This document shows positions 115 to 13,482 of a stretch of 13,624 bases of DNA, piece by piece. Source of the DNA: an uncultured archaeon. GTDB lineage: Archaea; Thermoproteota; Bathyarchaeia; Bathyarchaeales; Bathycorpusculaceae. A program made the position numbers and the translations under genes. The stretch covers positions 1-13,624 of the forward strand of contig CAWENF010000028.1 in NCBI GenBank assembly GCA_963810275.1, written 5' to 3'. A model generated the notes under the pieces. It saw nothing but the letters and a program-made list of their open reading frames with translations. It was not told the origin of the DNA and made no database searches. Positions within the stretch are counted from its first letter, which is position 1. Every line of letters starts with the position of its first letter.

Positions 115-2640
115 TTAGTTTTTGAATTTTTTAAGGTAAACGGCGCTTAATGCGACTGCCACTATGGCGATTGCTGCCATTATAGCGGCTATGTAGGTTG
201 CGTTTAGTTCGTCCTCTGGGGATGGCGTGCCGGTGGGTGTTGGAGTGCCGTCGCTTTGGTTGGCGCTGGTAACGTTTTCGGCGAAGCAGTAGAGGTTCCA
301 GTCGTTGCATCCGACGTAGAGGCGGTTGTTGGCTATGGTTGGCGAGGACCAGCTGCTGCTGCCTGTTGTGGCGGTATCTATGATGTTGCCTTCGTTGGTT
401 GTGTCTAAAACGAATATGTGACGTTGGCTGGTGACCATGTAGACTTTGCCGTCGGCATATGAGGGCGAAACGTAGAGTTCGTCGCCAGTGTACTTGTTCC
501 ATAGCGTCCAGCCGTTAGTGATGTTGACACATGTTAAGTCGAACTTGTCAATTAGCAGCACAGTGTCGTCAACATAGATAGGTGAGGAGACTATGAATTC
601 TGTGGCGGTGGGATTCTGGAAGTGCCACTCCATCATGCCGCTGTCCACGCTGTAACAGTAGTAGTCACCCCAGTCGGAGGAAGCAAACACTCTGCCCGCC
701 GCTACCGATGGCGAGCCGAGCATTTCTGTGCCGCCGCCAAACGAGAGGCGGTAGGGGATTTCGTTTTTCCACATGACTTCGCCTGTATCTGCGTTTAGTT
801 TGTATAGAGCACCTGTTTCGGGTTCTTCGGCGGTGAAGTAGACTGCGCCGTCGACGACTGCGGGGGAGGATTCGACGGGGCCCAGGGCTGCTGTTTGCCA
901 GAGTATGTCGCCGTTTGCGGCGTTTAATGCATATAGGTTGCCGTCCAAGCTGCCCACGTAAACGGTGTTGTTGGCGACCGCTGGAGAAGATTTCAACACC
1001 AAGTTTCCAAACGTGAAAGGCAGGTTACCGTTGACAAAGGTCTTCCAGAGAAACGCGCCAGTGTCTGCGTTGAGACAGTAAACGTAGCCGTCGTCTCCGC
1101 CAGTGTAGAGTCTGCCGTCTTCTACTGCCACGGAGGACTCTATTGGCGCCTGCGTTTTAAATTTCCAAAGTGGGTTGCCCGTCCAGGCATCTAGCGCGTA
1201 GATGTAGGTGTCTGAGGAACCAAAGTAAACCACTTCGTCAACCACCGAGGGAGACGAGATAACTGAGCCGCCGGTTTCATATTTCCATGCTAACGACAGA
1301 CTAGAGGGGCCTTTGGGTGCGGTCGAGCTGTGGGCTGCGTCGGCGCGCCACTGACTCCAGTCGCTAACAAACCGTGTTTCCTCGGTTTGCTCAGTGTCTT
1401 TTATTGCCCAGATTTGATGCTCGGTAGCGTACTCGTTACCAGAAATCGTATCCACCGCTGTGGTGACATCTCCGGGGATAATATAGAGGGTACCGTACGC
1501 AATAGCAACAGATTCACGGGGAGGCAAAGCTTCCAGATCGAACTTCCAAAGCTGCTGCCCATTATAAGCGTCCAAGCATGAAAACTCAGAGATGCCATCA
1601 GGCTTATTGTACTGTGCTGCTTCGCCAGTGGTCACATAGATTTTGCCGTCCGCCACCGAGGGCATGCCAGGCCACATCAACGAATCATTAGGCCCCTTAT
1701 ACTTCCAAACTATATCGCCTGTTTCTTGGCTGAAAGCATACATGAAGCCGTCTTTGTTCATTTCGTAAACCATGCCGTAAGCTACAGCGCAACCGGTTGT
1801 GAAGTAACCGTCGGTTTCGGGGGTGACTTTCCAGATTATGTCCCCCGTAGAAGCATTGAAACAGTACATGGTGTTGTCGTCACTTCCGCCCTTGAAGTAT
1901 TTGCCATCACTGTAGGCCCCCGTGAAAATCATGGGACCCTTAGTGTTGGTAGTCCAAAGGATTTCACCTGTCCGGGCATCCAAAGCGAGTTGCATGTTTT
2001 CAAACGAGCCAGTAAAAATTTTACCGTCCCCGTAAGCGGTTCCGATGCCTGTTATACCGCCGCCGCGAATGTAGGTTTCCCAAGCCACCGTGGGGGGATG
2101 AGAAGGATCAGAGAAATCCCAAGCCACAATAGTGGAGTTGACTTTGGTGTAGAACATTTTTTCCTCTGGACTGTACACGTTGGTGCTAAAGATTCCTGTG
2201 AAAGCGTTAAAGTCAGGGCTTTGCCAGAGTATTTTGCCTGTTTCGGGGTTAAGACAGTAGCTTTCGACTATCATGTGTGAGCTGTCGATTTTGTAGGCTA
2301 TGGGCCAATGAGTAGCGTTGGGAAACTCTGTTTGCCAAACGATGTCACCCTGTTGGTCAAGTGCGTACGCAACATGATTACTGCATATGTATACCTTGCC
2401 GTTGAAGGCTGAAAGGTACGGCTGGATTTCGGTTATGTTGGTTTTCCAGAGTACGTTGGGAGTGTTTGGGGCGGGTCCAGCGCTGAATCTGGTTAGTGCG
2501 GAGTCGCCTTGGTATTGGGGCCACTCGTACTCGTTTAGGGAGGTGGCGGCTTGGGCAACTTGCACGTTGGATAGGATAGAATATGCTGATGTGAATAGTA
2601 TACAGACTAAAATTATTGTTATTACATGTTTTTTTTGGAT
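115..2640 (-). CDS. Secreted, membrane-anchored tandem PQQ-like (BamB-type) beta-propeller protein
   Basis: 816-aa ORF from GTG 2565, extendable in frame to ATC 2640, which adds a signal peptide (IQKKHVITIILVCILFTSAYSILSNVQVAQA). It has two propeller domains, each opened by a cap motif (WPQYQGD, WSQWRAD), and repeated W-x-x-x-T..SSPAV..VYxGSxDxxLYAL blades. A Pro/Thr linker (TPTPTGTPSP) precedes a C-terminal TM helix and KKFKN tail. Many N-x-S/T sequons. The start position is uncertain. Confidence 0.88.
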   Translation of the reverse strand: MQKKHVITIILVCILFTSAYSILSNVQVAQAATSLNEYEWPQYQGDSALTRFSAGPAPNTPNVLWKTNITEIQPYLSAFNGKVYICSNHVAYALDQQGDIVWQTEFPNATHWPIAYKIDSSHMIVESYCLNPETGKILWQSPDFNAFTGIFSTNVYSPEEKMFYTKVNSTIVAWDFSDPSHPPTVAWETYIRGGGITGIGTAYGDGKIFTGSFENMQLALDARTGEILWTTNTKGPMIFTGAYSDGKYFKGGSDDNTMYCFNASTGDIIWKVTPETDGYFTTGCAVAYGMVYEMNKDGFMYAFSQETGDIVWKYKGPNDSLMWPGMPSVADGKIYVTTGEAAQYNKPDGISEFSCLDAYNGQQLWKFDLEALPPRESVAIAYGTLYIIPGDVTTAVDTISGNEYATEHQIWAIKDTEQTEETRFVSDWSQWRADAAHSSTAPKGPSSLSLAWKYETGGSVISSPSVVDEVVYFGSSDTYIYALDAWTGNPLWKFKTQAPIESSVAVEDGRLYTGGDDGYVYCLNADTGAFLWKTFVNGNLPFTFGNLVLKSSPAVANNTVYVGSLDGNLYALNAANGDILWQTAALGPVESSPAVVDGAVYFTAEEPETGALYKLNADTGEVMWKNEIPYRLSFGGGTEMLGSPSVAAGRVFASSDWGDYYCYSVDSGMMEWHFQNPTATEFIVSSPIYVDDTVLLIDKFDLTCVNITNGWTLWNKYTGDELYVSPSYADGKVYMVTSQRHIFVLDTTNEGNIIDTATTGSSSWSSPTIANNRLYVGCNDWNLYCFAENVTSANQSDGTPTPTGTPSPEDELNATYIAAIMAAIAIVAVALSAVYLKKFKN

Positions 2641-2885: not shown

Positions 2886-3983
2886 TTGACCGAAAAGAAA
2901 GGACCCCTACTAATGACTTCTTGGCGGTCCACAGGCGCCTGCAACGCAAGATGCGCATACTGCAACGTAGACGCAACCTGTGAAAATGCACCCCGAGAAA
3001 TGACAACAGAAGAAGCATTTCACCTTGTTGATGAAGTGCACAATTTTGGCGTAAGATGGTTCGGCATCAAAGGCGGCGAACCGCTTCTACGCAAAGACAT
3101 CTTTGAAATCGTCAGGTACGCCAAAGGGAAAGGCTTAAACGTATGCCTGTTGACAAACGGCTGCTTTGTCGACGGCGAAATCTACGATAACTTAGTCAAA
3201 TACAATGTCTGGTCCTCAGTCAGCATCGACGGACCCCAAGAAATCAATGATCAACTTCGTGGCAAAGGCAGCTACAAAAAAGCCCTTGCAGCCATCGAAA
3301 AATTATCAGCAGGAAAAATCCTAAACGGTTTAGCCTGCGCCATCACAAGCAAAAACTATCAGCACCTCGACCACGTTGCAGAGTTGGCAGAGAAATACAA
3401 AGCGAACTTTGTCTGGTACAACGCTCTTGTGCCCAGCGGCAGGGCCAAAACCACCCTAGAATTAACCCCCACACCCGAACAGTTGGAGTGGACCCTAAAC
3501 CACATCTGGGAATTAACAGAGAAGTACCATGACAAATTCGAAATACACGTGCACTGCCCACACTTCGCAAGAGTCGTCAAACAACGCATCCCCGAGGAAC
3601 ACTTCAACGAATGGTATGAAAAAGAGTTCCACGGAAAATGCACCTACTTCGCATTCGGCGGCTACATATCAGTAACAGAAAACGGCGACTTAATCCCCTG
3701 CTTCTATACCGACCTCACACCCAACGAACCCATGATGCTTGGAAACATCCGCAACAAACCCTTAACTCAGGCATGGGAAGAAATCAAAGCCTCAACATAC
3801 TACAACAGATTCCAAGACCGCAGCATCCTCAAAGGCAAATGCGGCGTCTGTGAGTACCGAGAAATTTGCGGCGGATGTAGAAACCGCTCCTACGCCTACA
3901 CCGGCGACATCACCGAATCCGACCCTGCCTGCCCATACATTCCTAAAGCGTGGGCTGAAATGCAGAAGCAGAATAAACAGTAA
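2886..3983 (+). CDS. Radical SAM/SPASM domain protein (NirJ/AhbC-D/PqqE/MftC-like)
   Basis: WRSTGACNARCAYC (CxxxCxxC), GGEPLLR, LTNG and SIDG motifs. C-terminal SPASM cysteines: C-x14-G-x4-C, GNIR, CGVCEYREICGGCR and DPAC. TTG start. No room for an N-terminal PqqD/RRE domain. Confidence 0.93.
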   Translation: MTEKKGPLLMTSWRSTGACNARCAYCNVDATCENAPREMTTEEAFHLVDEVHNFGVRWFGIKGGEPLLRKDIFEIVRYAKGKGLNVCLLTNGCFVDGEIYDNLVKYNVWSSVSIDGPQEINDQLRGKGSYKKALAAIEKLSAGKILNGLACAITSKNYQHLDHVAELAEKYKANFVWYNALVPSGRAKTTLELTPTPEQLEWTLNHIWELTEKYHDKFEIHVHCPHFARVVKQRIPEEHFNEWYEKEFHGKCTYFAFGGYISVTENGDLIPCFYTDLTPNEPMMLGNIRNKPLTQAWEEIKASTYYNRFQDRSILKGKCGVCEYREICGGCRNRSYAYTGDITESDPACPYIPKAWAEMQKQNKQ

Positions 3984-4061: not shown

Positions 4062-6308
4062 ATGAATAGCAAGGTTTGGGTCTGCTTGGCACTTGTGTTG
4101 GTTTTGGGTTCCTCCGTCGCCATCTCAGAGGGAGCGCTAAGCAGAGATTCTTGGCCAATGTTCCGAGGCGACATAGCCCACACAAGCACCACAGACTCTT
4201 CGGCGCCGCAGAGTAACCAGACACTTTGGAAGTTCAACACAGGCGGACAAGTCGGCTCCCCAAACGTCGTCGACAGTGCGGTGTATGTTGGAAGCTATGA
4301 CAACAAAGTGTACGCTTTCAATGCTTCCACAGGTGAGAAACTCTGGGCTTTCACTACAGGAGCGATCGTGATTTCCAAACCAGCCATATCAGAGGGCACC
4401 GTATGCGTAGGTTCTGAAGACTACAACCTCTATGCATTAAACGCCTCTGACGGAACCAAAATTTGGAGTTTCCAGACGGGATACTATGTGGATTCTGACC
4501 CAGCAATTGTAGACGGAGTGATTTACTTTGGCTCAGAAGATAACCGCGTTTACGCTTTGAAGCTTGCCACTGGAGAGAAACTATGGAGCTTTGAGGCAGG
4601 TGACAAAATCATGCTATCCGCTGCAACCGTCGCTGAAGGAGTAGTCTACATTGGCTCTTTGGACAACACACTTTACGCCCTTGACGCCTCCACGGGCGAA
4701 CTTGTCTGGAGCTTCAAAACCGTCGACAGTATCGTATCGGTCCCTGCCGTCTCAGAGGAAACGGTGTTCTTCGGCTCAAGCGACGACTCAGTCTATGCTT
4801 TGGATGCGGTGGATGGAGCTTTGAAGTGGCAGTTTACTACTGACGGAGACGTTTACTCATCGCCATACGTGTCAGATGGAGTTGTTTATGTTGGTTCGCT
4901 AGACGGCTACGTTTACGCTCTCCAAGCCTCCAACGGTGAGGAACTATGGAAGTACCAGACGGGAGCGGGTGTGGCTTCGGCGCCAAACGTGTCGGGGGGC
5001 GTCGTGTACGTGGGTTCTAATGATTTCAAAATCTACGCTTTGAACACCGCAGACGGGAAACTCCTGTGGAATTACGCGACAGGTGAGATGGTGATTTCGC
5101 AGCCAGCGGTAGCTAATAACGGGGTATATGTTGGTTCAGGTGACGGCAAACTCTACGCCCTAGACGCAGCTGACGGCACTCTTGGGTGGAGTTTTGCCAC
5201 TGGCAGCAGCATCGACGCATCTCCCACAGTCGCCGATGGGCTGGTGTTTGTGGGTTCGCATGACGGCAAAATATACGCATTAGACGCCGAAACGGGCATG
5301 GTTGGGTTCGATTGGGAGCAGCATAATACGGTTGTTTGGAGCTACGACACGGGCGACATGCTCATGTTCTCTTCCGCCGCAGTTGAAAGCGACCGTCTCT
5401 ATATTGGGGGTTACAACGGCAAAATCTATTGCTTAAACGCTCAAACTGGCGATTATCTTTGGAGTTACCAAACGGGGTACGCTGTTGTTTCCTCGCCCAC
5501 TGTTTGCAACGGTGTGGTGTATATTGGTTCGGAGGATTACACTTTTTACGCACTCAACGCCAATACGGGAAAGCTGCTTTGGAATTACACGACTGGAGAC
5601 CAGATTGCGGTTTCCTCCGCGGCAGCTGTAGGCGGGGTAATTTATTTTGGCTCCAACGACGGCTACCTCTACGCATTGGAGGCCACGTATGGAGGCTTGA
5701 AGTGGAAGTTCCTTACGGGCGGTGAGGTGGTTTCTTCGCCTGCGGTGGTGGATGGCAAAGCTTACTTTGGCTCCTACGACCACAACATCTACTGCTTAGA
5801 CGCTGCAAACGGCGGCTTAGTGTGGAAGTATACATGCAGTGCCCCAGTGGCTTCGTCACCAGCAGTTGCAAACGGCGTGGTGTATTTTGGTTCGGACGAC
5901 GGAAAACTGTACGCATTTGATGCCTCCGACGGCGCAGTCAAATGGAGCTTTGAAACTGGAGGAGCGGTGGCTTCATCGCCAGCAGTAGCTAGTGGAGATG
6001 TGGTTTTTGGTTCCAGTGACGGAGAAATCTACTCATTAGACACTCAAAAAGGGATTTTGGTGTGGAGCTACCTGACAGACGACGCAGTAGTTTCGTCGCC
6101 TGCCGTCGCAAACGGGGTTGTTTATGTTGGTTCCTATGACCACTTTGTCTACGCAATCGGAGCGCTTGCGCACCAACCGCAACAGCCATCAAGCACTGAA
6201 GCGTCTTTGCTCGCATGGATTGTGATAGTCGCAAACACAGCTTTAATCACCGTTGTCGCCATAGCATACCTTGTTGCAAGGCGCCGCCAATCACGTACTT
6301 CCAGCTAA
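4062..6308 (+). CDS. Secreted, membrane-anchored PQQ-like beta-propeller repeat protein (16 blades)
   Basis: Signal peptide MNSKVWVCLALVLVLGSSVA and cap WPMFRGDIAHT. I count 16 consecutive repeats of about 40 aa (WxFxTGxxVxSSPAVxxGVVYxGSxDxxLYALDAxxG). C-terminal TM helix followed by RRR. Confidence 0.93.
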   Translation: MNSKVWVCLALVLVLGSSVAISEGALSRDSWPMFRGDIAHTSTTDSSAPQSNQTLWKFNTGGQVGSPNVVDSAVYVGSYDNKVYAFNASTGEKLWAFTTGAIVISKPAISEGTVCVGSEDYNLYALNASDGTKIWSFQTGYYVDSDPAIVDGVIYFGSEDNRVYALKLATGEKLWSFEAGDKIMLSAATVAEGVVYIGSLDNTLYALDASTGELVWSFKTVDSIVSVPAVSEETVFFGSSDDSVYALDAVDGALKWQFTTDGDVYSSPYVSDGVVYVGSLDGYVYALQASNGEELWKYQTGAGVASAPNVSGGVVYVGSNDFKIYALNTADGKLLWNYATGEMVISQPAVANNGVYVGSGDGKLYALDAADGTLGWSFATGSSIDASPTVADGLVFVGSHDGKIYALDAETGMVGFDWEQHNTVVWSYDTGDMLMFSSAAVESDRLYIGGYNGKIYCLNAQTGDYLWSYQTGYAVVSSPTVCNGVVYIGSEDYTFYALNANTGKLLWNYTTGDQIAVSSAAAVGGVIYFGSNDGYLYALEATYGGLKWKFLTGGEVVSSPAVVDGKAYFGSYDHNIYCLDAANGGLVWKYTCSAPVASSPAVANGVVYFGSDDGKLYAFDASDGAVKWSFETGGAVASSPAVASGDVVFGSSDGEIYSLDTQKGILVWSYLTDDAVVSSPAVANGVVYVGSYDHFVYAIGALAHQPQQPSSTEASLLAWIVIVANTALITVVAIAYLVARRRQSRTSS

Positions 6309-6356: not shown

Positions 6357-6410
6357 CAAAAACATCATCGGTTAAAGTTCACTTGCTCTTCAGCACACGT
6401 GTGTGGATTC

Positions 6411-7817
6411 ATGACGACAAACAAGAAAGTAGCCCTCGTAAACCCGCCTCTACCAGTAGACATCGGCCACCACCCACAGTTTCCCCCGCTCGGGTTAGCT
6501 TACATGGCGGCGGTGCTGGAGCAAAACAATTTTGAAGTTAAAATCATCGACTGCCCAGTCAACCACTACGACCACGCAAACCTCAAAGCAGAACTCGACG
6601 CCTTCCAACCCGCCCTGATCGGGACAGGTGCTATGACTCCAACCATCGAGTCCGCCTTGAAAGGTACACAGGTAGCTAAAGAAGCCTGCCCTGATGCCAC
6701 CGTTGTTATGGGTGGTCCACACGCAACCTTCTCCGACGTCGAAGTTCTCACCCAAGAGAAAGCCGTGGACTTAATCGTGCGCGGGGAAGGCGAAGAAACA
6801 TTACTCGAATTAGCACAACAGCCCAAAACGGGGAAAAAACTAGGCGACATTAAAGGCATTTCTTTTCGCAAAGAAGGCAAAGTGGTGCAGACGCAACAGG
6901 GCCCATTTATCCAAGACCTTGACGCCTTACCCCTTCCAGCCTACCACCTGCTGCCAATAGAGAAATACTACGTGTCCAAACGCAAACTACTCCCAATAAT
7001 CACCAGCCGCGGCTGTCCCTACGCATGCGGCTTCTGCGTAGCCTCGCAGATGTTTGGGCAAAAGTTCCGTGCTCGCAGCCCAAAAAATGTGCTTGACGAG
7101 TTGGAGTGGCTACAAAACGAGTTCGGCGCAGAAGGAATCGCATTCCAAGACGACACATTCACTTTTGACCGCAACCGCGCCATGAAAATCTGCGACGGCA
7201 TGATTGAACGCAAACTAAAACTCCACTGGGGATGCGGAACCCGCGCCGATGTAGTCACCAAAGAAGTCTTAAACAAGATGGCGGCGGCGCACTGCGACGA
7301 AACCATGTTCGGAGTAGAAGCCGGCTGCCTAAGCATGCGAGCAATCCTTAAAAAAGGCGTTACAAACGAGCAAATCCAAAACGCCATCCAATGGGCAAAA
7401 GACGCAGGGATGTTTGTCACGGTCTCAGTGATTCTGGGTTATCCAGGCGAGACCCGCGAGACGCTTCAGGAAACATTGGATTTCGCGGGCAAGCTTAAAC
7501 CTGATGATGTTTGGCTCTGCCACTCCACACCATACCCGGGGACTCATCTGCGGGAAATCGTGGTTAAGAACGGCTGGCCTATGTCGCAGGACTGGAAAAC
7601 CTACAACACCATGAACGCCATCTACGAAGACCCCAACCTGCCAGCAAAAGAAATTGCCGAGATGCGGCGCCAGTTCTACAACAAGTTCTACAACGCCGCA
7701 TACATTCTGCGGCAAGCAAACAAAGGCTACCTCAAAGGCAACCTGTACAGCAAAATCATGACACGAACCGCCCTAAACTATAATCTTTGGAGGGTCATGT
7801 CAGCATTTCACCGCTAA
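6411..7817 (+). CDS. Cobalamin-binding radical SAM protein (class B methyltransferase/BchE-like)
   Basis: N-terminal B12-binding signatures PPLGLAYMAA, VVMGGPHAT and VRGEGE. Radical SAM core TSRGCPYACGFC, FQDDTF, FGVEAG, ILGYPGET and PYPGT. ATG 6411 is preferred over GTG 6399. Confidence 0.92.
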   Translation: MTTNKKVALVNPPLPVDIGHHPQFPPLGLAYMAAVLEQNNFEVKIIDCPVNHYDHANLKAELDAFQPALIGTGAMTPTIESALKGTQVAKEACPDATVVMGGPHATFSDVEVLTQEKAVDLIVRGEGEETLLELAQQPKTGKKLGDIKGISFRKEGKVVQTQQGPFIQDLDALPLPAYHLLPIEKYYVSKRKLLPIITSRGCPYACGFCVASQMFGQKFRARSPKNVLDELEWLQNEFGAEGIAFQDDTFTFDRNRAMKICDGMIERKLKLHWGCGTRADVVTKEVLNKMAAAHCDETMFGVEAGCLSMRAILKKGVTNEQIQNAIQWAKDAGMFVTVSVILGYPGETRETLQETLDFAGKLKPDDVWLCHSTPYPGTHLREIVVKNGWPMSQDWKTYNTMNAIYEDPNLPAKEIAEMRRQFYNKFYNAAYILRQANKGYLKGNLYSKIMTRTALNYNLWRVMSAFHR

Positions 7818-7916: not shown

Positions 7917-9218
7917 ATGGCTAAAACCTCTGCAACTGCAGACCAGATAGAAGCTTATGGCTCACGGGAAAATTGGCCCCCATATACTTACCGTGATTAC
8001 CCAGAAATCCAACCAGAAACATACGAAGCATTCATGAAGTTTCTAAACACCGAAAACACGTCCGGTAGGCTAATGGAGCTGCAGCCGTGGGTTTCGGTAT
8101 GCGACAGCCGCTGCGCCTTCTGCTATTTCCCAACAACCGCTTCAAGAAATGTCGACATAGAAACTTACCTGAATCTGCTCAAAAAAGAGCTGGCGATGTA
8201 CGCTAAAACCAAATATGTACAAACCAGCTACTTTGACGAAATTGTGTTAGGCGGAGGAACCCCCAGCGTTTTGAGCGCTGAACAAATCATTGATTTAATT
8301 GATTTCTGCAAAGCCAACTTTAACACCAGCAAAGAATACTTCATCAAAGTCACAGGCTCATCCAAAACTTTGGCGATACCAAAAATCAAGAAGCTGGCGG
8401 AATATGGCGTTTACCAGATGGATATGGGTGCACAGACCTTTGACAACAAACTGCGCAAAGCGCTTTGCCTGCCAGACAGCGCCAAAGACGTTGAGGAAGC
8501 AATCAAGTATGCACGCAGCCTCGGCTTAGTCGTCTGCGTAGACATCATGTACAACCTGCCTGGACAAACTATGGAAAGCTGGGAAGACACGCTAAAGAAA
8601 ACAATCGAGTTAGACGCCGAAGTCGACTGCTACTCGCTACACGTTGACCCCGGAACCATTCTTGAAAAAATGATTCAAAACGGCACATCTCCACCACAGG
8701 GCGACGCAGAATTCGAAAAGCAACTCTTCATTAAAGCACATGAAACACTCACCAAAGCAGGCTACACCGCTGTGGGACACGACCGCTATAGTCGCGTCGA
8801 GTGGCACATGAGAGAAAACTGCCTAAACGGCTGGCCATGGGGCGGCATCTTAACAACAGGCGCAGGATGCTTCATGGGTTACCTGCAGAAGTTCAGCTAC
8901 TCAAACATCGAAGATATCCACAGCTACATGGATACGGTGCGTTCAGGCAAACTGCCAATCTCCAGACTGTCTGAGTCTACAATGGATGACATGATGCGGC
9001 GCACTATGTCCAGACTGTACCTAAGGTTGCCAGTGAGCAAAAAAGAGTTCATAGAGAAATTCAACACAACTCCCGAGGCAGTGTTTTCCAAACAGATTGA
9101 GAAGCTAAAAGCTGATGGCTTAATTGAAATAGACGAAAACGAAGTCCGCTTGACAAAGAAAGGCGAACTTTGGAAAGGCAACATTGCTTGGGAGTTTGCT
9201 CCCCAGGCTAAAGCCTAA
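7917..9218 (+). CDS. HemN-like (class C) radical SAM protein, function unknown
   Basis: CDSRCAFC, GGGTPS, MGAQTFD, DIMYNLPGQT, YSLHVDPGT and GAG motifs, plus a HemN_C-like end (VRLTKKG). It lacks the HemN RNFQGY and HemW HNxxYW signatures. Confidence 0.88.
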   Translation: MAKTSATADQIEAYGSRENWPPYTYRDYPEIQPETYEAFMKFLNTENTSGRLMELQPWVSVCDSRCAFCYFPTTASRNVDIETYLNLLKKELAMYAKTKYVQTSYFDEIVLGGGTPSVLSAEQIIDLIDFCKANFNTSKEYFIKVTGSSKTLAIPKIKKLAEYGVYQMDMGAQTFDNKLRKALCLPDSAKDVEEAIKYARSLGLVVCVDIMYNLPGQTMESWEDTLKKTIELDAEVDCYSLHVDPGTILEKMIQNGTSPPQGDAEFEKQLFIKAHETLTKAGYTAVGHDRYSRVEWHMRENCLNGWPWGGILTTGAGCFMGYLQKFSYSNIEDIHSYMDTVRSGKLPISRLSESTMDDMMRRTMSRLYLRLPVSKKEFIEKFNTTPEAVFSKQIEKLKADGLIEIDENEVRLTKKGELWKGNIAWEFAPQAKA

Positions 9219-9296: not shown

Positions 9297-10046
9297 TTAA
9301 TAGCCCATGCTATGCCTTTGCGGCTGGATACCGTACCATGTCATGACTTTAGCAAGAATCGGAACGATCACACCCAAAGCAATGCTTGGAACGAAACCAG
9401 TAACAATTGCCATCAGTGGATCAACTGCCCATTGACCTTGAGCCATGTTGCGTGCGGGTTCTAGCGAAATATTGTAGTTCATGAAGGCTTGAATGACAGC
9501 GGTGATTATTGCTGCTGTTAAGCCTGCGCCGAGCATGCGTTTGAAGTTTGTTGAGCCGTTGTTAAGTGCACCTGCCATGTAACCAATGATAACTGCGTTG
9601 ACTAAGTAGAAGAGCATGCTAATGTCGCCAAAGAAGTTGTAAGGAACCGAAGAATAGCCATTCATAGCTAGTGAGGTGATGCTTCCGTTGTAGATTCCGT
9701 TCAGTGTGTCTGTTGAGATTTGAATTTCGCCAAATACCATTCCACCCATAGCGTAAAGACCGTTGTATTGACCTGCATTTGCCACGTAGTAGATACCGCC
9801 CATGATGAAACCTGCAGCGCCACCAGCCCATTTATTCCACAGCAAACCCAACACAAGTGGGACACCAAGAATAATCATCTGAGCAAAGCCGCTTGTCAGA
9901 ATAACACCAATAACATCTTGACCAAGCAAATGATACTGACCGCCAATGTTAACATAGACTGCCAAGACATAGATGAGAACTGCGAGGATAATGGGTATGA
10001 GGACGCCTGCGAGGATGTCAGTTATTTTGGTTTTGTTTTCTGTCAA
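9297..10046 (-). CDS. Six-TM integral membrane protein, ECF S-component-like (paralogue 2)
   Basis: 249 aa with six hydrophobic segments. VPLVLGLLWNKWAGGAAGFIMGGIY resembles the TM2-TM3 hairpin of ECF S-components. TTG start preceded by SD-like AGGTG. The CDS is secure, but the family call is tentative. Confidence 0.8.
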   Translation of the reverse strand: MTENKTKITDILAGVLIPIILAVLIYVLAVYVNIGGQYHLLGQDVIGVILTSGFAQMIILGVPLVLGLLWNKWAGGAAGFIMGGIYYVANAGQYNGLYAMGGMVFGEIQISTDTLNGIYNGSITSLAMNGYSSVPYNFFGDISMLFYLVNAVIIGYMAGALNNGSTNFKRMLGAGLTAAIITAVIQAFMNYNISLEPARNMAQGQWAVDPLMAIVTGFVPSIALGVIVPILAKVMTWYGIQPQRHSMGY

Positions 10047-10754
10047 TTTTTTACACCTGCTTTCATTATGGGATTTAATATCCAGCGTGTTTCTGAGGCT
10101 GGATACCGTACCATGTCATGACTTTAGCAAGAATCGGAACGATCACACCCAAAGCAATGCTTGGAACGAAACCAGTAACAATTGCCATCAGTGGATCAAC
10201 TGCCCATTGACCTTGAGCCATGTTGCGTGCGGGTTCTAGCGAAATATTGTAGTTCATGAAGGCTTGAATTACTGCTGTTACGATTGCAGCGGTTAAACCT
10301 GCAACGAGCATACGTTTGAAGTTTGTTGAGCCGTTGTTAAGTGCACCTGCCATGTAACCAATGATAACTGCGTTGACTAAGTAGAAGAGCATGCTAATGT
10401 CGCCAAAGAAGTTGTAAGGAACCGAAGAATAGCCACTTACAGCTAGAGATGTAATTGAACCATTGCCGATGCCGTTTAAGATATCTGCTGAGACCATAGC
10501 TTGACCAGAAGCCATTCCACCCATAGCGTAAAGACCGTTGTATTGACCTGCATTTGCCACGTAGTAGATACCGCCCATGATGAAACCTGCAGCGCCACCA
10601 GCCCATTTATTCCACAGCAAACCCAACACAAGTGGGACACCAAGAATAATCATCTGAGCAAAGCCGCTTGTCAGAATAACACCAATAACATCTTGACCAA
10701 GCAAATGATACTGACCGCCAATGTTAACATAGACTGCCAAGACATAGATGAGAA
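9322..10754. repeat. Tandem gene duplication, 775-bp offset, with three identical blocks
   Basis: By manual alignment 9322-9494 = 10097-10269 (173 bp), 9538-9660 = 10313-10435 (123 bp) and 9737-9979 = 10512-10754 (243 bp), with no mismatches seen. Confidence 0.95.
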
Positions 10755-10824
10755 TTACTAGAATGATGGGTATGATAATGCCGCCGAAAATGTCTGCTAG
10801 TTTAAATCTGTTATCTTCTGCCAT
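10075..10824 (-). CDS. Six-TM integral membrane protein, ECF S-component-like (paralogue 1)
   Basis: 249 aa and near-identical to 9297-10046, except for the N-terminus, a loop of about 25 aa, two TM5 residues and the C-terminal tail. ATG preceded by AAGGGA. Confidence 0.8.
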   Translation of the reverse strand: MAEDNRFKLADIFGGIIIPIILVILIYVLAVYVNIGGQYHLLGQDVIGVILTSGFAQMIILGVPLVLGLLWNKWAGGAAGFIMGGIYYVANAGQYNGLYAMGGMASGQAMVSADILNGIGNGSITSLAVSGYSSVPYNFFGDISMLFYLVNAVIIGYMAGALNNGSTNFKRMLVAGLTAAIVTAVIQAFMNYNISLEPARNMAQGQWAVDPLMAIVTGFVPSIALGVIVPILAKVMTWYGIQPQKHAGY

Positions 10825-10860
10825 TTTTATCCCTTTACTTTATCTTTACATTGTGGCGGG

Positions 10861-10875
10861 TTTATAAGTTTAATG
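10861..10875 (-). promoter_or_regulatory. Putative BRE/TATA box for the membrane protein pair
   Basis: The minus strand reads CATTAAAC-TTATAAA about 37 nt upstream of ATG 10824. Confidence 0.55.
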
Positions 10876-10980
10876 CTTGAAAGCTTGGCATGTTAAAAAA
10901 TAATGGCAAATAGCCGCCATACAGGACATTAGATTCAAACACGTTATGCAGATATAGTGTTGCTTAAGTCGAGAATAGTT

Positions 10981-11010
10981 TAAAGAAAATATAAAAGGGG
11001 AAATGGGGGG
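10981..11010 (-). terminator. Pyrimidine/oligo-T terminator candidate after rnfC
   Basis: The minus strand reads CCCCCCATTTCCCCTTTTATATTTTCTTTA directly after the stop codon. Confidence 0.5.
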
Positions 11011-12291
11011 TTATTGACGCGCCATCTTAACGTTGAACGCTAGTGGCAAGTTGGCTGGGCAAACATACGAGCAAGTTCCACACATAATGCAGTCTTTAGC
11101 GTATAGTTTGGCTGCCTTCTCGAAGTCACCTTTAACGACGGCGTTGTAAATAGCTACTGGCTGCAAACGTACTGGACATGCGCTGACACATCTACCGCAA
11201 TGGATACATGCGGTTTGTTTTTTTGCTTTGGCGTGGGCTTTGTTGAAGACAATGATGCTTGAGGTGCGTTTAGTAATTGGAGCGGCAGTTTCTTGGAGTG
11301 CTGTTCCCATCATTACTCCGCCGACGACTACTGCACCAACGTTAGTGACGTTGTTTGCGCTAAGTATGTTGCTGATTGGAGTACCGATTTTCACCATCAG
11401 GTTCTTTGGTTTTGGTAAATCACCGTTCAGGGCTGTGACTCTGCTTATGAGAGGTTCGCCTTCAAAGACTGCGTTTGCGATTGCGTTCATCGTGGCTACG
11501 TTCTGGACGATGGTGCCCATTTCGTAGCTGCGTTTACCTGAGGGTTGTTCATATCCGAGGATAGCTTTTTGCATCAGGCCTGCATCACCCTGCTGATAGG
11601 TGAGGTGCAAAACGCGAACTTCTGAGTCTGGTTCTTTAGCGAATGCTTGTTGAAGTTTAGGTACAGCTTCAGCCTTGCTTTCTTTGGTGACGACGATAAC
11701 TTTGGGGTTACCCAAAATCTTGCGTACAACGCGAACACCGCGAACTAGGTTTGCGGTTTTCTCAGTCATTAAGCGTTCGTCGGCTGTGTCGTAGGGTTCG
11801 CCTTCTGCGCAGTTAACGAGGAGGTACTTGATTTTTTTGTCCGCTGGCACAGCCAACTTAACGGATGTTGGGAAGCCTGCGCCGCCCATGCCGATAATAC
11901 CGGCTTCACGGATGATTTTTAGGAGATCCTCGTTTTTGGTTGTTGCCAACTCTGTTTCTTTTATGGGTGTTATTGCTTTGTCAACGGTTTTTTTGCCGTC
12001 GTTTTCGATGTAGATAGCTTCGGTTGGTGCTTCAAAGCAGCTGTTGAATGCATTTTCGATTTTGATGACTTTACCGCAGATGGGGCTGTGAACTGGCGCG
12101 CTGATTTTGGCATCTACGTCTGCAATTTTCTGTCCGATTATAACTGCGTCACCGACTTTGACTGTTGGAACGTTGGTTGCTCCGACTTGCTGGTTGGTTA
12201 AGACTACTGCGATTTTGGGGTCTGGAAAGATTTCGATGGTTGTTTTTCGCGCGACATCTTTTACTTCTGGTATAGATACTAAGTTTGCCAT
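11011..12291 (-). CDS. rnfC: RnfC/RsxC-family flavin-binding 2x[4Fe-4S] electron transfer subunit
   Basis: N-terminal barrel-sandwich segment (VKVGDAV..GQKIA..SAPVHSPICGKV), AGIIGMGGAGFPTSVKL, NCAEGEPY.TADERLM, VQNVAT and GGVMMG. Two ferredoxin motifs, CIHCGRCVSACP and CIMCGTCSYVCP. Confidence 0.92.
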   Translation of the reverse strand: MANLVSIPEVKDVARKTTIEIFPDPKIAVVLTNQQVGATNVPTVKVGDAVIIGQKIADVDAKISAPVHSPICGKVIKIENAFNSCFEAPTEAIYIENDGKKTVDKAITPIKETELATTKNEDLLKIIREAGIIGMGGAGFPTSVKLAVPADKKIKYLLVNCAEGEPYDTADERLMTEKTANLVRGVRVVRKILGNPKVIVVTKESKAEAVPKLQQAFAKEPDSEVRVLHLTYQQGDAGLMQKAILGYEQPSGKRSYEMGTIVQNVATMNAIANAVFEGEPLISRVTALNGDLPKPKNLMVKIGTPISNILSANNVTNVGAVVVGGVMMGTALQETAAPITKRTSSIIVFNKAHAKAKKQTACIHCGRCVSACPVRLQPVAIYNAVVKGDFEKAAKLYAKDCIMCGTCSYVCPANLPLAFNVKMARQ

Positions 12292-12296
12292 TTTGT

Positions 12297-13421
12297 TTAC
12301 TCTCCAAAGGGTTTGTTTAAGCGAACTTTGTCGATAAACGGTACAGTTAGGTTCATGATTAGTAATGCAAGTAGTGAACCGCCGAAGAAGCCCATAAAGG
12401 TTTGTATCAGTATGGTCAAAACTGCTAAGCCGATGCCGAAGATGATTTGTCCTACGCCATTATACGGTGTTGTAGCGGGATCCGTTGCCATGAAGAACGC
12501 CATGAAGATTGAGCTGCCTGCGAAGAGTTCGAACAGCAGTCTTGTGGTAAAGTCTGCATCGCCAAAGATTGCTGAGAACATTACTGAGAGAATTGCGATT
12601 GCGACTAGGTAGCTTGCGGTGATTCTCCATTTGAAGTATTTGCGTCCGATAACGAATAGTGCGACACCTGCGATTATGACTGCGATGCTGCATGCTCCAC
12701 CGACCCATCCGTGGAATTTCGTTAACAACATAATTTCCTCTACACTGGGTAGAGTTTGGGCTGTGGGTAAAGCGTAGCAAGTTTGTAGGTAACCTGCAAA
12801 TGAAGAGTAGCCAGTTGGTCCGCCGTTTCCACCCACGATAACAGAGCCGATTGGACCTGACAGTGAGGGTACTTGAAGCAGGCCAGTTTTAAGGTGCCAG
12901 CTTGTGAGTAGAGTAGTGGCTGTTGCTGGAAGCAAGACAAGGAATTTAGCTGCTGCGGCAGGGTTTACGGGTTTGTGGCCAGCTAAGCTTGCGACTTTCT
13001 TGAAAACAACGAGACCTATGAGCGAGATTAATGCTATGTAGAAGAATGCGAGTGGTGCTTCGACAGGTACGCCAGTTTCCATGCCTACTGCCATGCCTGG
13101 GTAGCCGAGGGTGAAACAGTTAATTACGATTAAACCGAAGACGGCTGCTGACCAAGTGTTAACTTCGCTGTCTACGGCTAATTTGCCGATTAACAGGTCA
13201 ACGACTACGGCTATGCCGACTGCTATGAATGCGCCGAGAGCTACAGTTACACCCAAGTTCCATCCTGAGGGGGTAGTAACTTGAGACCAGAGAGCCGAGG
13301 AAACGATAGTGACTGCGAGAATTGCGAAGAAAGTAAGCTGCATTATGCGATTCTTTGTCATTGGACCATGAATGTGTGGTGCTTGGTTTACAACTAGTTC
13401 AGTTGAGTTTTCGTTACTCAT
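12297..13421 (-). CDS. rnfD: RnfD/NqrB-family membrane subunit (divergent)
   Basis: N-terminal APHIH..IM, NPAAAAK, KWRI and FFMATDPATTP motifs, with multiple TM helices. Its stop lies 5 nt before the rnfC ATG, and GGAG is embedded in its last codons. Confidence 0.88.
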   Translation of the reverse strand: MSNENSTELVVNQAPHIHGPMTKNRIMQLTFFAILAVTIVSSALWSQVTTPSGWNLGVTVALGAFIAVGIAVVVDLLIGKLAVDSEVNTWSAAVFGLIVINCFTLGYPGMAVGMETGVPVEAPLAFFYIALISLIGLVVFKKVASLAGHKPVNPAAAAKFLVLLPATATTLLTSWHLKTGLLQVPSLSGPIGSVIVGGNGGPTGYSSFAGYLQTCYALPTAQTLPSVEEIMLLTKFHGWVGGACSIAVIIAGVALFVIGRKYFKWRITASYLVAIAILSVMFSAIFGDADFTTRLLFELFAGSSIFMAFFMATDPATTPYNGVGQIIFGIGLAVLTILIQTFMGFFGGSLLALLIMNLTVPFIDKVRLNKPFGE

Positions 13422-13465
13422 TTATTCTAACCTTCTCAAATGAAGAGGTATTTCAGAGTGCTCAC

Positions 13466-13482
13466 TTATTAAACTTTTTCGC
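13466..13482 (-). promoter_or_regulatory. Putative BRE/TATA box for rnfD-rnfC
   Basis: The minus strand reads GCGAAAAAG-TTTAATAA about 45 nt upstream of ATG 13421. An SD-like GAAGGT precedes the start. Confidence 0.6.

Follow-up and report, generated by a model that had tools for sequence, protein, structure and literature searches.

A conserved RnfD-like and RnfC gene pair of Bathyarchaeia, a candidate membrane redox module derived from Rnf

When an rnfD and an rnfC gene occur by themselves on an archaeal contig, do they encode part of an Rnf ion pump or something else? The question is raised by positions 11,011 to 13,482 of a 13,624-nt stretch of DNA from an uncultured archaeon of the Bathyarchaeia (family Bathycorpusculaceae; assembly GCA_963810275.1, contig CAWENF010000028.1), which is called the window here in its whole length. 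A preliminary description of this DNA proposed that the two genes form a stand-alone two-subunit redox unit distinct from ion-pumping Rnf.

Rnf and Nqr are usually treated as fixed six-subunit ion pumps; Bathyarchaeia, in 79 species-level genomes or more, carry a conserved derivative made up of two or three genes. The reading that we favour, and to which we give an even chance, is that the pair encodes an Rnf-derived membrane redox module, conserved among Bathyarchaeia, which would act as a non-pumping electron relay linked to radical S-adenosylmethionine (SAM) enzymes and would not be an Rnf complex. Gene content, conservation, synteny, domain swaps and the loss of the flavinylation segment were observed and form its basis.

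The gene pair and the search for other rnf genes

Both open reading frames (ORFs) are present on the same strand (Table 1), rnfD-like first, and are separated by 5 nt (TAA-acaaa-ATG), as first described. Relatives were collected by a family-alignment scan with one genome per species, which gave 240 stretches with relatives; the best 80 yielded 79 loci, each analysed with a flank of up to 10 kb on either side. The closest proteins are 60-100% identical and come from Bathyarchaeia/Bathyarchaeota including Candidatus Bathycorpusculum (among the 120 matches listed of 901), and the record titles of the 79 loci nearly all name Bathyarchaeota. This survey of D-C pairs in related archaea, a check suggested along with the preliminary description, found the pair conserved, with the rnfD-like gene in 79/79 loci. 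The nearest relative of the window, locus L015 (OY970286.1), has an identical gene order.

Five contigs with the cluster are titled otherwise (L018, L065, L072, L016 and L017; Methanocella sp., Nanoarchaeia, 'uncultured bacterium', Nitrososphaerota and Crenarchaeota). These titles probably reflect differences in binning or naming, not gene transfer.

No other rnf gene had been recognised in the window when it was first described, and none was found now. Scans of its nine large ORFs with Pfam and NCBIfam identified D and C only, the remaining seven being not rnf, and revealed no further nqr gene in the window. RsxA, RsxE and RsxG of E. coli (NC_000913.3), used as phmmer queries against all ORFs of at least 60 aa in the window and in the 79 loci with their flanks, gave no match at E<=10, and E. 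coli Ftp/ApbE gave none at E<=10 in the same loci and window. The RsxB query matched two small ferredoxin-like ORFs only (L015, L078), none of them in the window. The 10 kb beyond the rnfD-like gene of L015 contain no rnf gene; they encode a small regulator, a SPASM radical SAM protein, SAM synthetase, RidA, a DUF4443 regulator and a GPN-loop ATPase.

The feature is therefore real and conserved, and it is stand-alone as far as a 10-kb flank in 79 species shows. This part of the claim of a stand-alone two-subunit unit stands; the count of two does not hold as well, as a membrane protein called M249 is a conserved partner encoded downstream (see below).

Published surveys give a similar picture in their accessible parts. 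RnfABCDEG was detected in no Bathy-6 member (PMC7886697, available text). Among 19 Bathyarchaeotal metagenome-assembled genomes (MAGs), BLAST found only RnfB (18), RnfC (4) and RnfD (3), and the function of this partial set was left open (PMC9534799, available text). The passages available of two further papers assign Rnf to bacteria only within one data set (PMC11631310) and list Rnf in archaea for Methanosarcinales only (PMC4014512). We found no description of such a D-C module in a literature search that lay outside subscription journals and supplements.

The preliminary description had placed a TATA candidate upstream of the pair and a T-rich terminator candidate behind rnfC, and both signals recur among the relatives. 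The TAATA core of the upstream element is invariant, and its flanks nearly so, in 24/24 aligned upstream regions from other species; a T-rich consensus occurs at the same place across 24 aligned rnfC-to-M249 intergenic regions. Since these promoter-like and T-rich signals bracket D-C and a second promoter-like motif precedes M249, the pair is probably a bicistronic unit, and M249 is probably transcribed separately yet syntenic.

The ratio of nonsynonymous to synonymous substitution rates (dN/dS) was 0.08-0.16 for D and C, compared with three relatives, and 0.05-0.08 for M249. Values of 0.05-0.16 identify the pair and M249 as being under purifying selection. These values, together with ORFs that are intact in most of the 79 loci and the conserved promoter, led us to reject the pair as the decaying remains of an rnf operon.

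In six contigs from MAGs (L009, L014, L019, L026, L037 and L051) the rnfD-like, rnfC or M249 gene is in pieces. This may be due to frameshifts from assembly errors or to real decay.

The 5' leader of the rnfD-like gene (about 13425-13447, minus strand) contains a hairpin-like inverted repeat, CTTC ATTT GAGAAG, that overlaps a Shine-Dalgarno-like GAAGGT. By eye, other species show seemingly compensatory changes (CTTAA/TTAAG, AAGT/ACTT, CTCT/AGAG). RNAalifold detected no consensus structure in 26 upstream regions, of which 5 rows were out of register. The whole window had no Rfam match at E<=1; no tRNA was found in the window, and no known riboswitch in the 186-nt gap before M249.

The two proteins and the exchangeable cytoplasmic module

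The relatedness of both proteins was judged by bit-score yardsticks, for which E. coli sequences and the scores of Protein Data Bank (PDB) chains were used. RnfC shows the architecture of its family in Pfam: an RnfC_N barrel, a Complex1_51K domain (the NuoF-like domain for flavin mononucleotide (FMN) and NAD(H), with GMGGAGFPT) and a C-terminal 4Fe-4S dicluster domain with two CxxCxxCxxxCP motifs. It scores above the cut-offs of TIGR01945 rnfC (400.2 bits, cut-off 245.95) and of the RsxC equivalog (362.7 bits, cut-off 345). Solved RnfC chains of A. woodii, C. tetanomorphum and A. vinelandii were matched with 236-272 bits over residues 11-425 (272 bits with 9eri_C, residues 20-425); the yardstick, E. 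coli RsxC against the same chains, is 285-410 bits. The NqrA model (53.4 bits, cut-off 450) and the PrdC model TIGR04481 (146.6 bits, cut-off 490) remained below their cut-offs, and no PduS model was among the 25 NCBIfam matches listed of 36. Judged by these scores RnfC is canonical, and the RnfD-like protein alone falls outside canonical Rnf.

The RnfD-like protein matched PF03116 (NQR2_RnfD_RnfE) with 129.5 bits and reached 100.2 bits with TIGR01946, below the cut-off of 207.05. All 29 aligned relatives match TIGR01946, with a best E-value of 1.1e-31. More specific models scored far lower: RsxD 74 (cut-off 415), the Methanosarcina-type RnfD 61 (cut-off 400) and two NqrB models 56.2 and 50.9 (cut-offs 414 and 350). 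Solved RnfD chains gave 55-67 bits and NqrB 42-43 bits, with an alignment to NqrB that begins only at about residue 187; E. coli RsxD scores 183-263 bits with the RnfD chains and about 86 with NqrB. By this yardstick the Bathyarchaeial protein is further from RnfD than RsxD is from NqrB.

The predicted fold nevertheless is still of the RnfD/NqrB type. An AlphaFold2 model of low confidence (pLDDT 61.7) was searched with Foldseek, and all 15 matches at E<=0.001 were RnfD or NqrB chains, headed by the RnfD chains 9eri_D and 7zc6_D; urea transporters (E about 0.01) and Amt/Rh proteins followed. The RnfD hallmarks FFMATDP and NPAA are retained.

What is missing is the site of flavin attachment. In RnfD, FMN is attached covalently through a threonine close to the outer face, and the riboflavin of RnfD adjoins the proximal cluster of RnfC (PMC12174285, available text). 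The threonine-bearing segment (DGMTGAT in A. vinelandii, from a profile alignment; DGISQAT in E. coli RsxD, from a MAFFT alignment) aligns to a stretch that is variable within the Bathyarchaeial family, and 20 of the 29 aligned relatives have lost it ('NG------ASF'). The modified threonine is presumably part of a motif of the (S/T)-x-A-T type; [ST]GA[TS] was found at this site in none of the 29. Four invariant residues specific to the family, H176, C215, H237 and W239, lie in the rebuilt region. The claim of the preliminary description that the module is distinct from ion-pumping Rnf is thus supported, as far as sequence comparison can tell, by a strongly diverged RnfD-like protein that lies under its family cut-off and is devoid of the flavinylation segment.

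The cytoplasmic part of the module was found to vary. A quick maximum likelihood tree was built from E. coli RsxD and 74 RnfD-like rows (73 loci and the window), after removal of six rows whose ORFs were shorter than 340 aa; a careful tree search is unfinished. Separate RnfC proteins occur in 44/74 rows, the window included. Fusions of the RnfD-like protein to a domain with two [4Fe-4S] clusters only (RnfD~Fer4, approximately 440-505 aa) make up 26/74; the fused domain matches the C-terminal 14-18% of the window RnfC with 40-48% identity, and no separate rnfC follows the fusion. A third type, in 3/74 rows (L042, L043, L078), is a fusion RnfD~Fer4~FrhB with the N- and C-terminal domains of FrhB/FdhB. 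All fused forms belong to one derived clade of 30 rows (SH-aLRT 99), within which the FrhB addition arose at least twice; the forms with separate RnfC are basal. All three forms share one gene context: L042, L043 and L078 still have the SPASM, M249 and HemN genes.

A search restricted to longer proteins added 93 relatives (clusters) of 692-751 aa, all with PF03116 and both FrhB_FdhB domains. One of them is labelled Hodarchaeota and one is named 'F420H2:quinone oxidoreductase subunit F' in its source, so that the diverged RnfD scaffold with a coenzyme F420-type module possibly occurs outside Bathyarchaeia as well.

Because members of the clade fuse the RnfD-like protein to Fer4 alone or to Fer4 and FrhB, the constant core is the RnfD-like membrane protein with the proximal two-[4Fe-4S] domain, whereas the nucleotide module on the cytoplasmic side can be exchanged. 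Relatives in which a bare Fe-S domain or an F420-type module stands in for RnfC show that NADH is dispensable as a partner; NAD(H) is one option among several.

M249 and the radical SAM neighbourhood

One or two copies of the M249 gene, encoding 220-250 aa across the loci, lie downstream of D-C; the gene is present in 57/79 loci and duplicated in 14/79, most of the others having a single copy. The tandem copies of the window share 218/245 identities by BLASTP, at a synonymous divergence (dS) of 0.26, and contain no cysteine. The promoter-like motif before M249a has 13 invariant columns across 24 species and a single match in the window, with none in 200 shuffles; it could be the binding site of a local regulator. 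CAAGCTT-like repeats precede it. M249 is a conserved third membrane protein beside the 'two-subunit' unit, with a promoter-like motif of its own.

M249 matched no family model of Pfam or NCBIfam. Among 1.84 billion representatives searched with its profile, only 109 matched at E<=0.001, many of them fragments; Pfam, run on 13 of the 109 and on M249, returned nothing above cut-off for the M249 family. One match, P0143, carries a Peptidase_M50 domain above cut-off, outside its M249-like part.

Three leads point towards the S-components of energy-coupling factor (ECF) transporters. The AlphaFold2 model (pLDDT 84, 8 predicted helices) had its best Foldseek match in PanT (6zg3_C; E 0.09, TM-scores 0.45/0.53), followed by RibU, ThiT and BioY, with no match at E<=0.001. 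In the protein atlas, M249's own clusters were followed by one of ECF S-components at 0.84. A distant relative of M249 showed PF12822 below threshold (E 0.024), and M249 itself showed no PF12822. These leads agree, weakly, and they do not establish membership of M249 in that family.

M249 as a hidden RnfA, RnfE or RnfG was rejected: hhalign of its profile with RsxA, RsxE and RsxG gave probabilities of 0.2-0.4%, and the protein has no [2Fe-2S]-ligating cysteine. A complex prediction for the RnfD-like protein and M249 scored 0.00 against a mark of 0.32; controls were absent, and the result has no bearing either way.

The usual order downstream is M249, in one or two copies, and then a convergent HemN-like radical SAM gene. 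For the 65 loci with at least 4 kb downstream, M249 and the HemN-like gene were both present in 53, both absent in 11 and discordant in one (L009, in which M249 is in pieces); L061, one of the 11, has both genes further away.

The features of the window and of selected relatives are collected in Table 1.

Table 1. Positions of the D-C pair, its candidate signals and neighbouring features (window coordinates unless a locus is named)
Feature	Position	Strand	Description
RnfD-like polytopic membrane protein	12297..13421	-	374 aa, ATG start; PF03116; TIGR01946 below cut-off
RnfC	11011..12291	-	426 aa, ATG start; Pfam, TIGR01945, RsxC equivalog
BRE/TATA-like (transcription factor B recognition element/TATA) promoter element CGAAAAAG-TTTAATA	13467..13481	-	candidate; approximately 50 nt upstream of the rnfD-like start codon
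T-rich tract	10982..11004 (about)	-	candidate archaeal terminator, just after the rnfC stop codon
M249a	10075..10824	-	249-aa membrane protein, motif GLLWNKWAGGAAGF; no Pfam/NCBIfam model
M249b	9297..10046	-	tandem paralogue of M249a, 89% identical; TTG start
Promoter-like motif AAGCATTAAACTTATAAAC (AAGCATTAARCTTATAAAC)	10860..10878	-	approximately 40 nt upstream of M249a
HemN/ChuW-like class C radical SAM	7917..9218	+	convergent to the module; Radical_SAM, HemN_C
B12-binding radical SAM	6399..7817	+	B12-binding, Radical_SAM
SPASM radical SAM, AhbD/NirJ/AhbC type	2886..3983	+	Radical_SAM, SPASM; AhbD 217 bits, cut-off 500
PQQ-like/BamB-like (PQQ, pyrroloquinoline quinone) beta-propeller protein	115-2565	-	816 aa
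PQQ-like/BamB-like beta-propeller protein	4062-6308	+	748 aa
Gene of approximately 151 aa, divergent from rnfD-like	L015:9318-9782; L002:9387-9842	-	just past the window end
RnfD-like~2x[4Fe-4S]~FrhB/FdhB fusions	L042:9992-12148; L043; L078:10031-12202		about 700-750 aa; proteins P0234-P0326

The neighbourhood is rich in radical SAM genes. The HemN-like protein has HutW/ChuW as its best NCBIfam match (183 bits, cut-off 400), and the B12-binding radical SAM protein is closest to HpnJ (241 bits) and BchE (239 bits), both under cut-off. Of the loci with at least 8 kb of flank, 36/59 have the B12 radical SAM gene downstream, 31/59 a second SPASM gene and 41/59 large PQQ-like beta-propeller proteins. 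The plus-strand beta-propeller gene of the window is flanked by the SPASM gene and the B12 radical SAM gene.

The SPASM gene of the window is a paralogue of one that relatives carry upstream of rnfD-like, past the window end. Both paralogues, at full length, best match enzymes that act on tetrapyrrole side chains, namely AhbD (207-217 bits), NirJ1/2, NirJ and AhbC, all far under the equivalog cut-offs. Where at least 2 kb of upstream flank was available, the SPASM gene was found just upstream of rnfD-like in 68/72 loci, usually divergent; in L023-L025 it immediately precedes rnfD-like and shares its strand. The 151-aa gene sits between the two in 37/72. Its product had no Pfam or NCBIfam match; it resembles atlas clusters in which 10-29% of the members carry LexA_DNA_bind, HTH_5 or TrmB, has a winged-helix-like N-terminus and a hydrophobic C-terminal half, and is probably a membrane-anchored local regulator.

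Corrinoid genes adjoin the module in some relatives. Genes for BtuFCD-like, CobS and MobA/CobY-like proteins lie directly upstream in 7/79 loci (L023, L024, L027, L044, L049, L053, L054; 1-9 kb). An MtrH-like methyltransferase and a small corrinoid protein are encoded upstream in 22/79 (for example L062:1901-8015). The distant member L072 has a same-strand run of two SPASM genes, two B12 radical SAM genes, cbiB and a BtuF-like gene that ends in RnfD~Fer4.

CbiB and an amidohydrolase are among the corrinoid genes at L072:3899-9178. The 22 loci with MtrH also encode, upstream, a DUF1616 protein and two paralogous proteins of approximately 770 aa (c26), for which no Pfam or PDB match was obtained and, from NCBIfam, only a 26-bit STT3 fragment.

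Proposed role, alternatives and known systems

In the reading of a membrane relay we infer how D and C dock, which cofactor they use, which way electrons flow, what accepts them and how the radical SAM enzymes are linked to the module. By homology to Rnf, RnfC with its FMN, NAD(H) site and two [4Fe-4S] clusters would dock on the RnfD-like protein. Electrons would pass between NAD(H) and a non-covalent cofactor within the latter, which to judge from RnfD and NqrB would be a riboflavin-type flavin close to the cytoplasmic side; a further partner, within or at the membrane, would receive them or deliver them. Ion pumping and the twofold crossing of the membrane, as in Rnf, would not be expected, because the RnfA/E [2Fe-2S] unit, RnfG and RnfB are not encoded nearby and the FMN-attachment segment is missing.

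The steady pairing with radical SAM enzymes suggests that the module most likely serves as a membrane-associated electron relay for the flanking AhbD/NirJ-like, HemN/ChuW-like and B12-dependent radical SAM enzymes, the nearest characterised relatives of which carry out oxidative tetrapyrrole chemistry. Its simplest form would be a sink, in which electrons from oxidative radical SAM reactions are passed to NAD+ (to F420 or ferredoxin in the other forms); RnfC works in the NAD+-reducing direction in forward Rnf. In the opposite direction, the module may supply electrons to the radical SAM enzymes. The preliminary description had thought a corrinoid-reducing or radical-SAM-supplying role conceivable; from the gene context we infer some link of this kind, because radical SAM genes are constant neighbours and corrinoid genes adjoin in a minority of loci. 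The module is possibly tied to radical SAM chemistry on tetrapyrroles or corrinoids.

Several points weigh against this reading. The queries for the missing subunits were single E. coli sequences, which very divergent archaeal homologues could escape, and the search for rnfA, B, E, G and apbE reached 10 kb per side, not whole genomes. The low-confidence model of the RnfD-like protein does not reach to cofactor sites, and the root of its tree lies on one very long outgroup branch and is unsure. M249 and the HemN-like gene are not obligatory, since 11/65 loci lack both close downstream. Several housekeeping genes, such as those for SAM synthetase and the GPN-loop ATPase (36-38 loci), are no less syntenic, and the radical SAM synteny may reflect conserved gene order within one class, not function. 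A role as donor would need another energy input, because NADH, at about -320 mV, cannot alone reduce radical SAM clusters.

'RnfC/RnfD present' in metagenome surveys of Bathyarchaeia should not be taken as an Rnf pump, or as a partial, misassembled one; these are described as predominant archaea of anoxic marine sediments (PMC9534799, available text). The RnfD/NqrB fold appears to be reusable as a membrane electron-transfer scaffold. To our knowledge, the electron exchange of HemN-type radical SAM enzymes is an open question, and the pairing with AhbD/NirJ-like, HemN/ChuW-like and B12 radical SAM enzymes provides a testable candidate for such exchange in anaerobes.

A bolder version, which we consider rather unlikely, would make the diverged RnfD scaffold the membrane core of an undescribed family of modular archaeal dehydrogenases, coupled through a proximal two-[4Fe-4S] domain to RnfC for NAD(H), to an FrhB/FpoF-like module for F420 or to none for ferredoxin. 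These would act as the long-sought electron acceptor or relay for anaerobic oxidative radical SAM enzymes (HemN, AhbD/NirJ, BchE) that would modify a tetrapyrrole or corrinoid at the membrane, and M249 would hold the substrate.

Among the rival explanations, a corrinoid reductase is one that we judge unlikely. It would reduce cob(III/II)alamin at the membrane in the manner of PduS, for B12 radical SAM enzymes, corrinoid proteins or imported corrinoids, and M249 would be its corrinoid-binding partner. The B12 radical SAM gene of the cluster and the corrinoid genes upstream in 7 and in 22 loci fit this proposal, as do the cbiB and BtuF-like genes before RnfD~Fer4 in L072 and the weak resemblance of M249 to vitamin-binding S-components, which is not significant. 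However, most loci have no adjacent corrinoid gene, the tightest partner is the SPASM enzyme, which is without a B12 domain, and RnfC scores as RnfC, far from the PrdC cut-off and with no PduS model among the 25 matches listed. PduS is moreover soluble, which leaves the membrane subunit unexplained.

We regard as improbable that the pair is a minimal NADH (or F420H2):lipophilic-acceptor oxidoreductase of NqrB-like type, a small respiratory-type dehydrogenase unrelated to the radical SAM genes. In favour of it, input modules are swapped here as they are in modular dehydrogenases, the fused FrhB module is of the same family as the subunit that oxidises F420H2 at the entry to Fpo/Fqo, and the source name of one relative is that of such an enzyme. 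In NQR, the Na+-translocating NADH:quinone oxidoreductase, the riboflavin of NqrB passes electrons directly to ubiquinone, but the N-terminal amphipathic helices of the NqrB quinone site are absent from RnfD (PMC12174285, available text), and the window protein aligns with NqrB only from about residue 187 onward. The 79 neighbourhoods showed no gene for the biosynthesis of quinones or phenazines, and the ubiquinone pathway is only partial in Bathyarchaeotal MAGs (PMC9534799, available text).

Redox-coupled uptake appears very unlikely. In this proposal a transporter-like RnfD-like protein and an S-component-like M249 would import a vitamin, tetrapyrrole or metal chelate that is reduced on entry by the Fe-S domain or RnfC. 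Urea transporters and Amt/Rh proteins follow RnfD and NqrB in the Foldseek list, in agreement with the evolutionary relation to the Amt/urea-transporter fold (PMC12174285, available text), and M249 has its leads towards S-components. Against it, that resemblance is weak, confidence in the RnfD-like model is low, the neighbourhoods showed neither EcfT nor EcfA genes, and M249 is absent in 11/65 loci that retain D-C.

Weakest, and to us barely credible, is a split canonical Rnf with its other four subunits encoded elsewhere and the pair as the C-D part of an ion-translocating ferredoxin:NAD+ oxidoreductase: the canonical score of RnfC, the 10-kb limit of the flanks and the RnfB matches in 18/19 MAGs (PMC9534799) would agree with it, but the RnfD-like protein lies far under its cut-off and is devoid of the FMN-threonine segment needed for electrons of RnfG, the replacement of RnfC by an Fe-S domain alone or an FrhB module does not suit a fixed six-subunit machine, the RsxB matches here are small ferredoxins, and the accessible parts of the surveys report no RnfABCDEG in any Bathy-6 genome (PMC7886697) and no RnfA/E/G in the 19 MAGs (PMC9534799).

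The favoured relay module can be compared with several known systems. ECF S-components (PanT 6zg3_C, RibU 5kbw_B, ThiT, BioY) are the best structural matches of the M249 model and its nearest named atlas cluster; unlike M249, with 8 predicted helices, they have a six-helix fold, the matches are not significant, and no EcfT/EcfA is encoded nearby. The F420-binding Fe-S flavoproteins FpoF/FqoF and FrhB resemble the module that relatives carry fused behind the two-cluster domain, like a detachable input subunit; in the window this module is absent and RnfC takes that position.

The cobalamin reductase PduS and the proline reductase-associated PrdC are RnfC-type flavin/Fe-S proteins that work without a pump. 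Unlike PrdC, the window protein scores as RnfC/RsxC (147 against a cut-off of 490 for PrdC) and is paired with a membrane protein of RnfD type.

NqrB of the Na+-NQR of V. cholerae (7xk3) belongs to the same fold family and sets a precedent for transfer from riboflavin to a membrane acceptor. Its similarity to the RnfD-like protein amounts to 42-43 bits only (56 against 414 with the hidden Markov model), the window protein shows no sign of the N-terminal quinone-site helices, and no NqrA, C, D, E or F was seen.

With the Rnf complex (A. woodii 9eri, C. tetanomorphum 7zc6, A. vinelandii 8ahx) the window shares a full-length canonical RnfC with the same domains and both Fe-S motifs, a membrane protein that appears to have the RnfD/NqrB fold with FFMATDP and NPAA, and adjacent C and D genes. 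It differs in that D precedes C, that A, B, E and G genes are not nearby, so that the six genes do not occur together, and that the RnfD-like protein scores under the family cut-off and is without the FMN-threonine segment. It differs also in that RnfC is replaced by other modules in relatives and that a new 249-aa membrane protein is the conserved partner.

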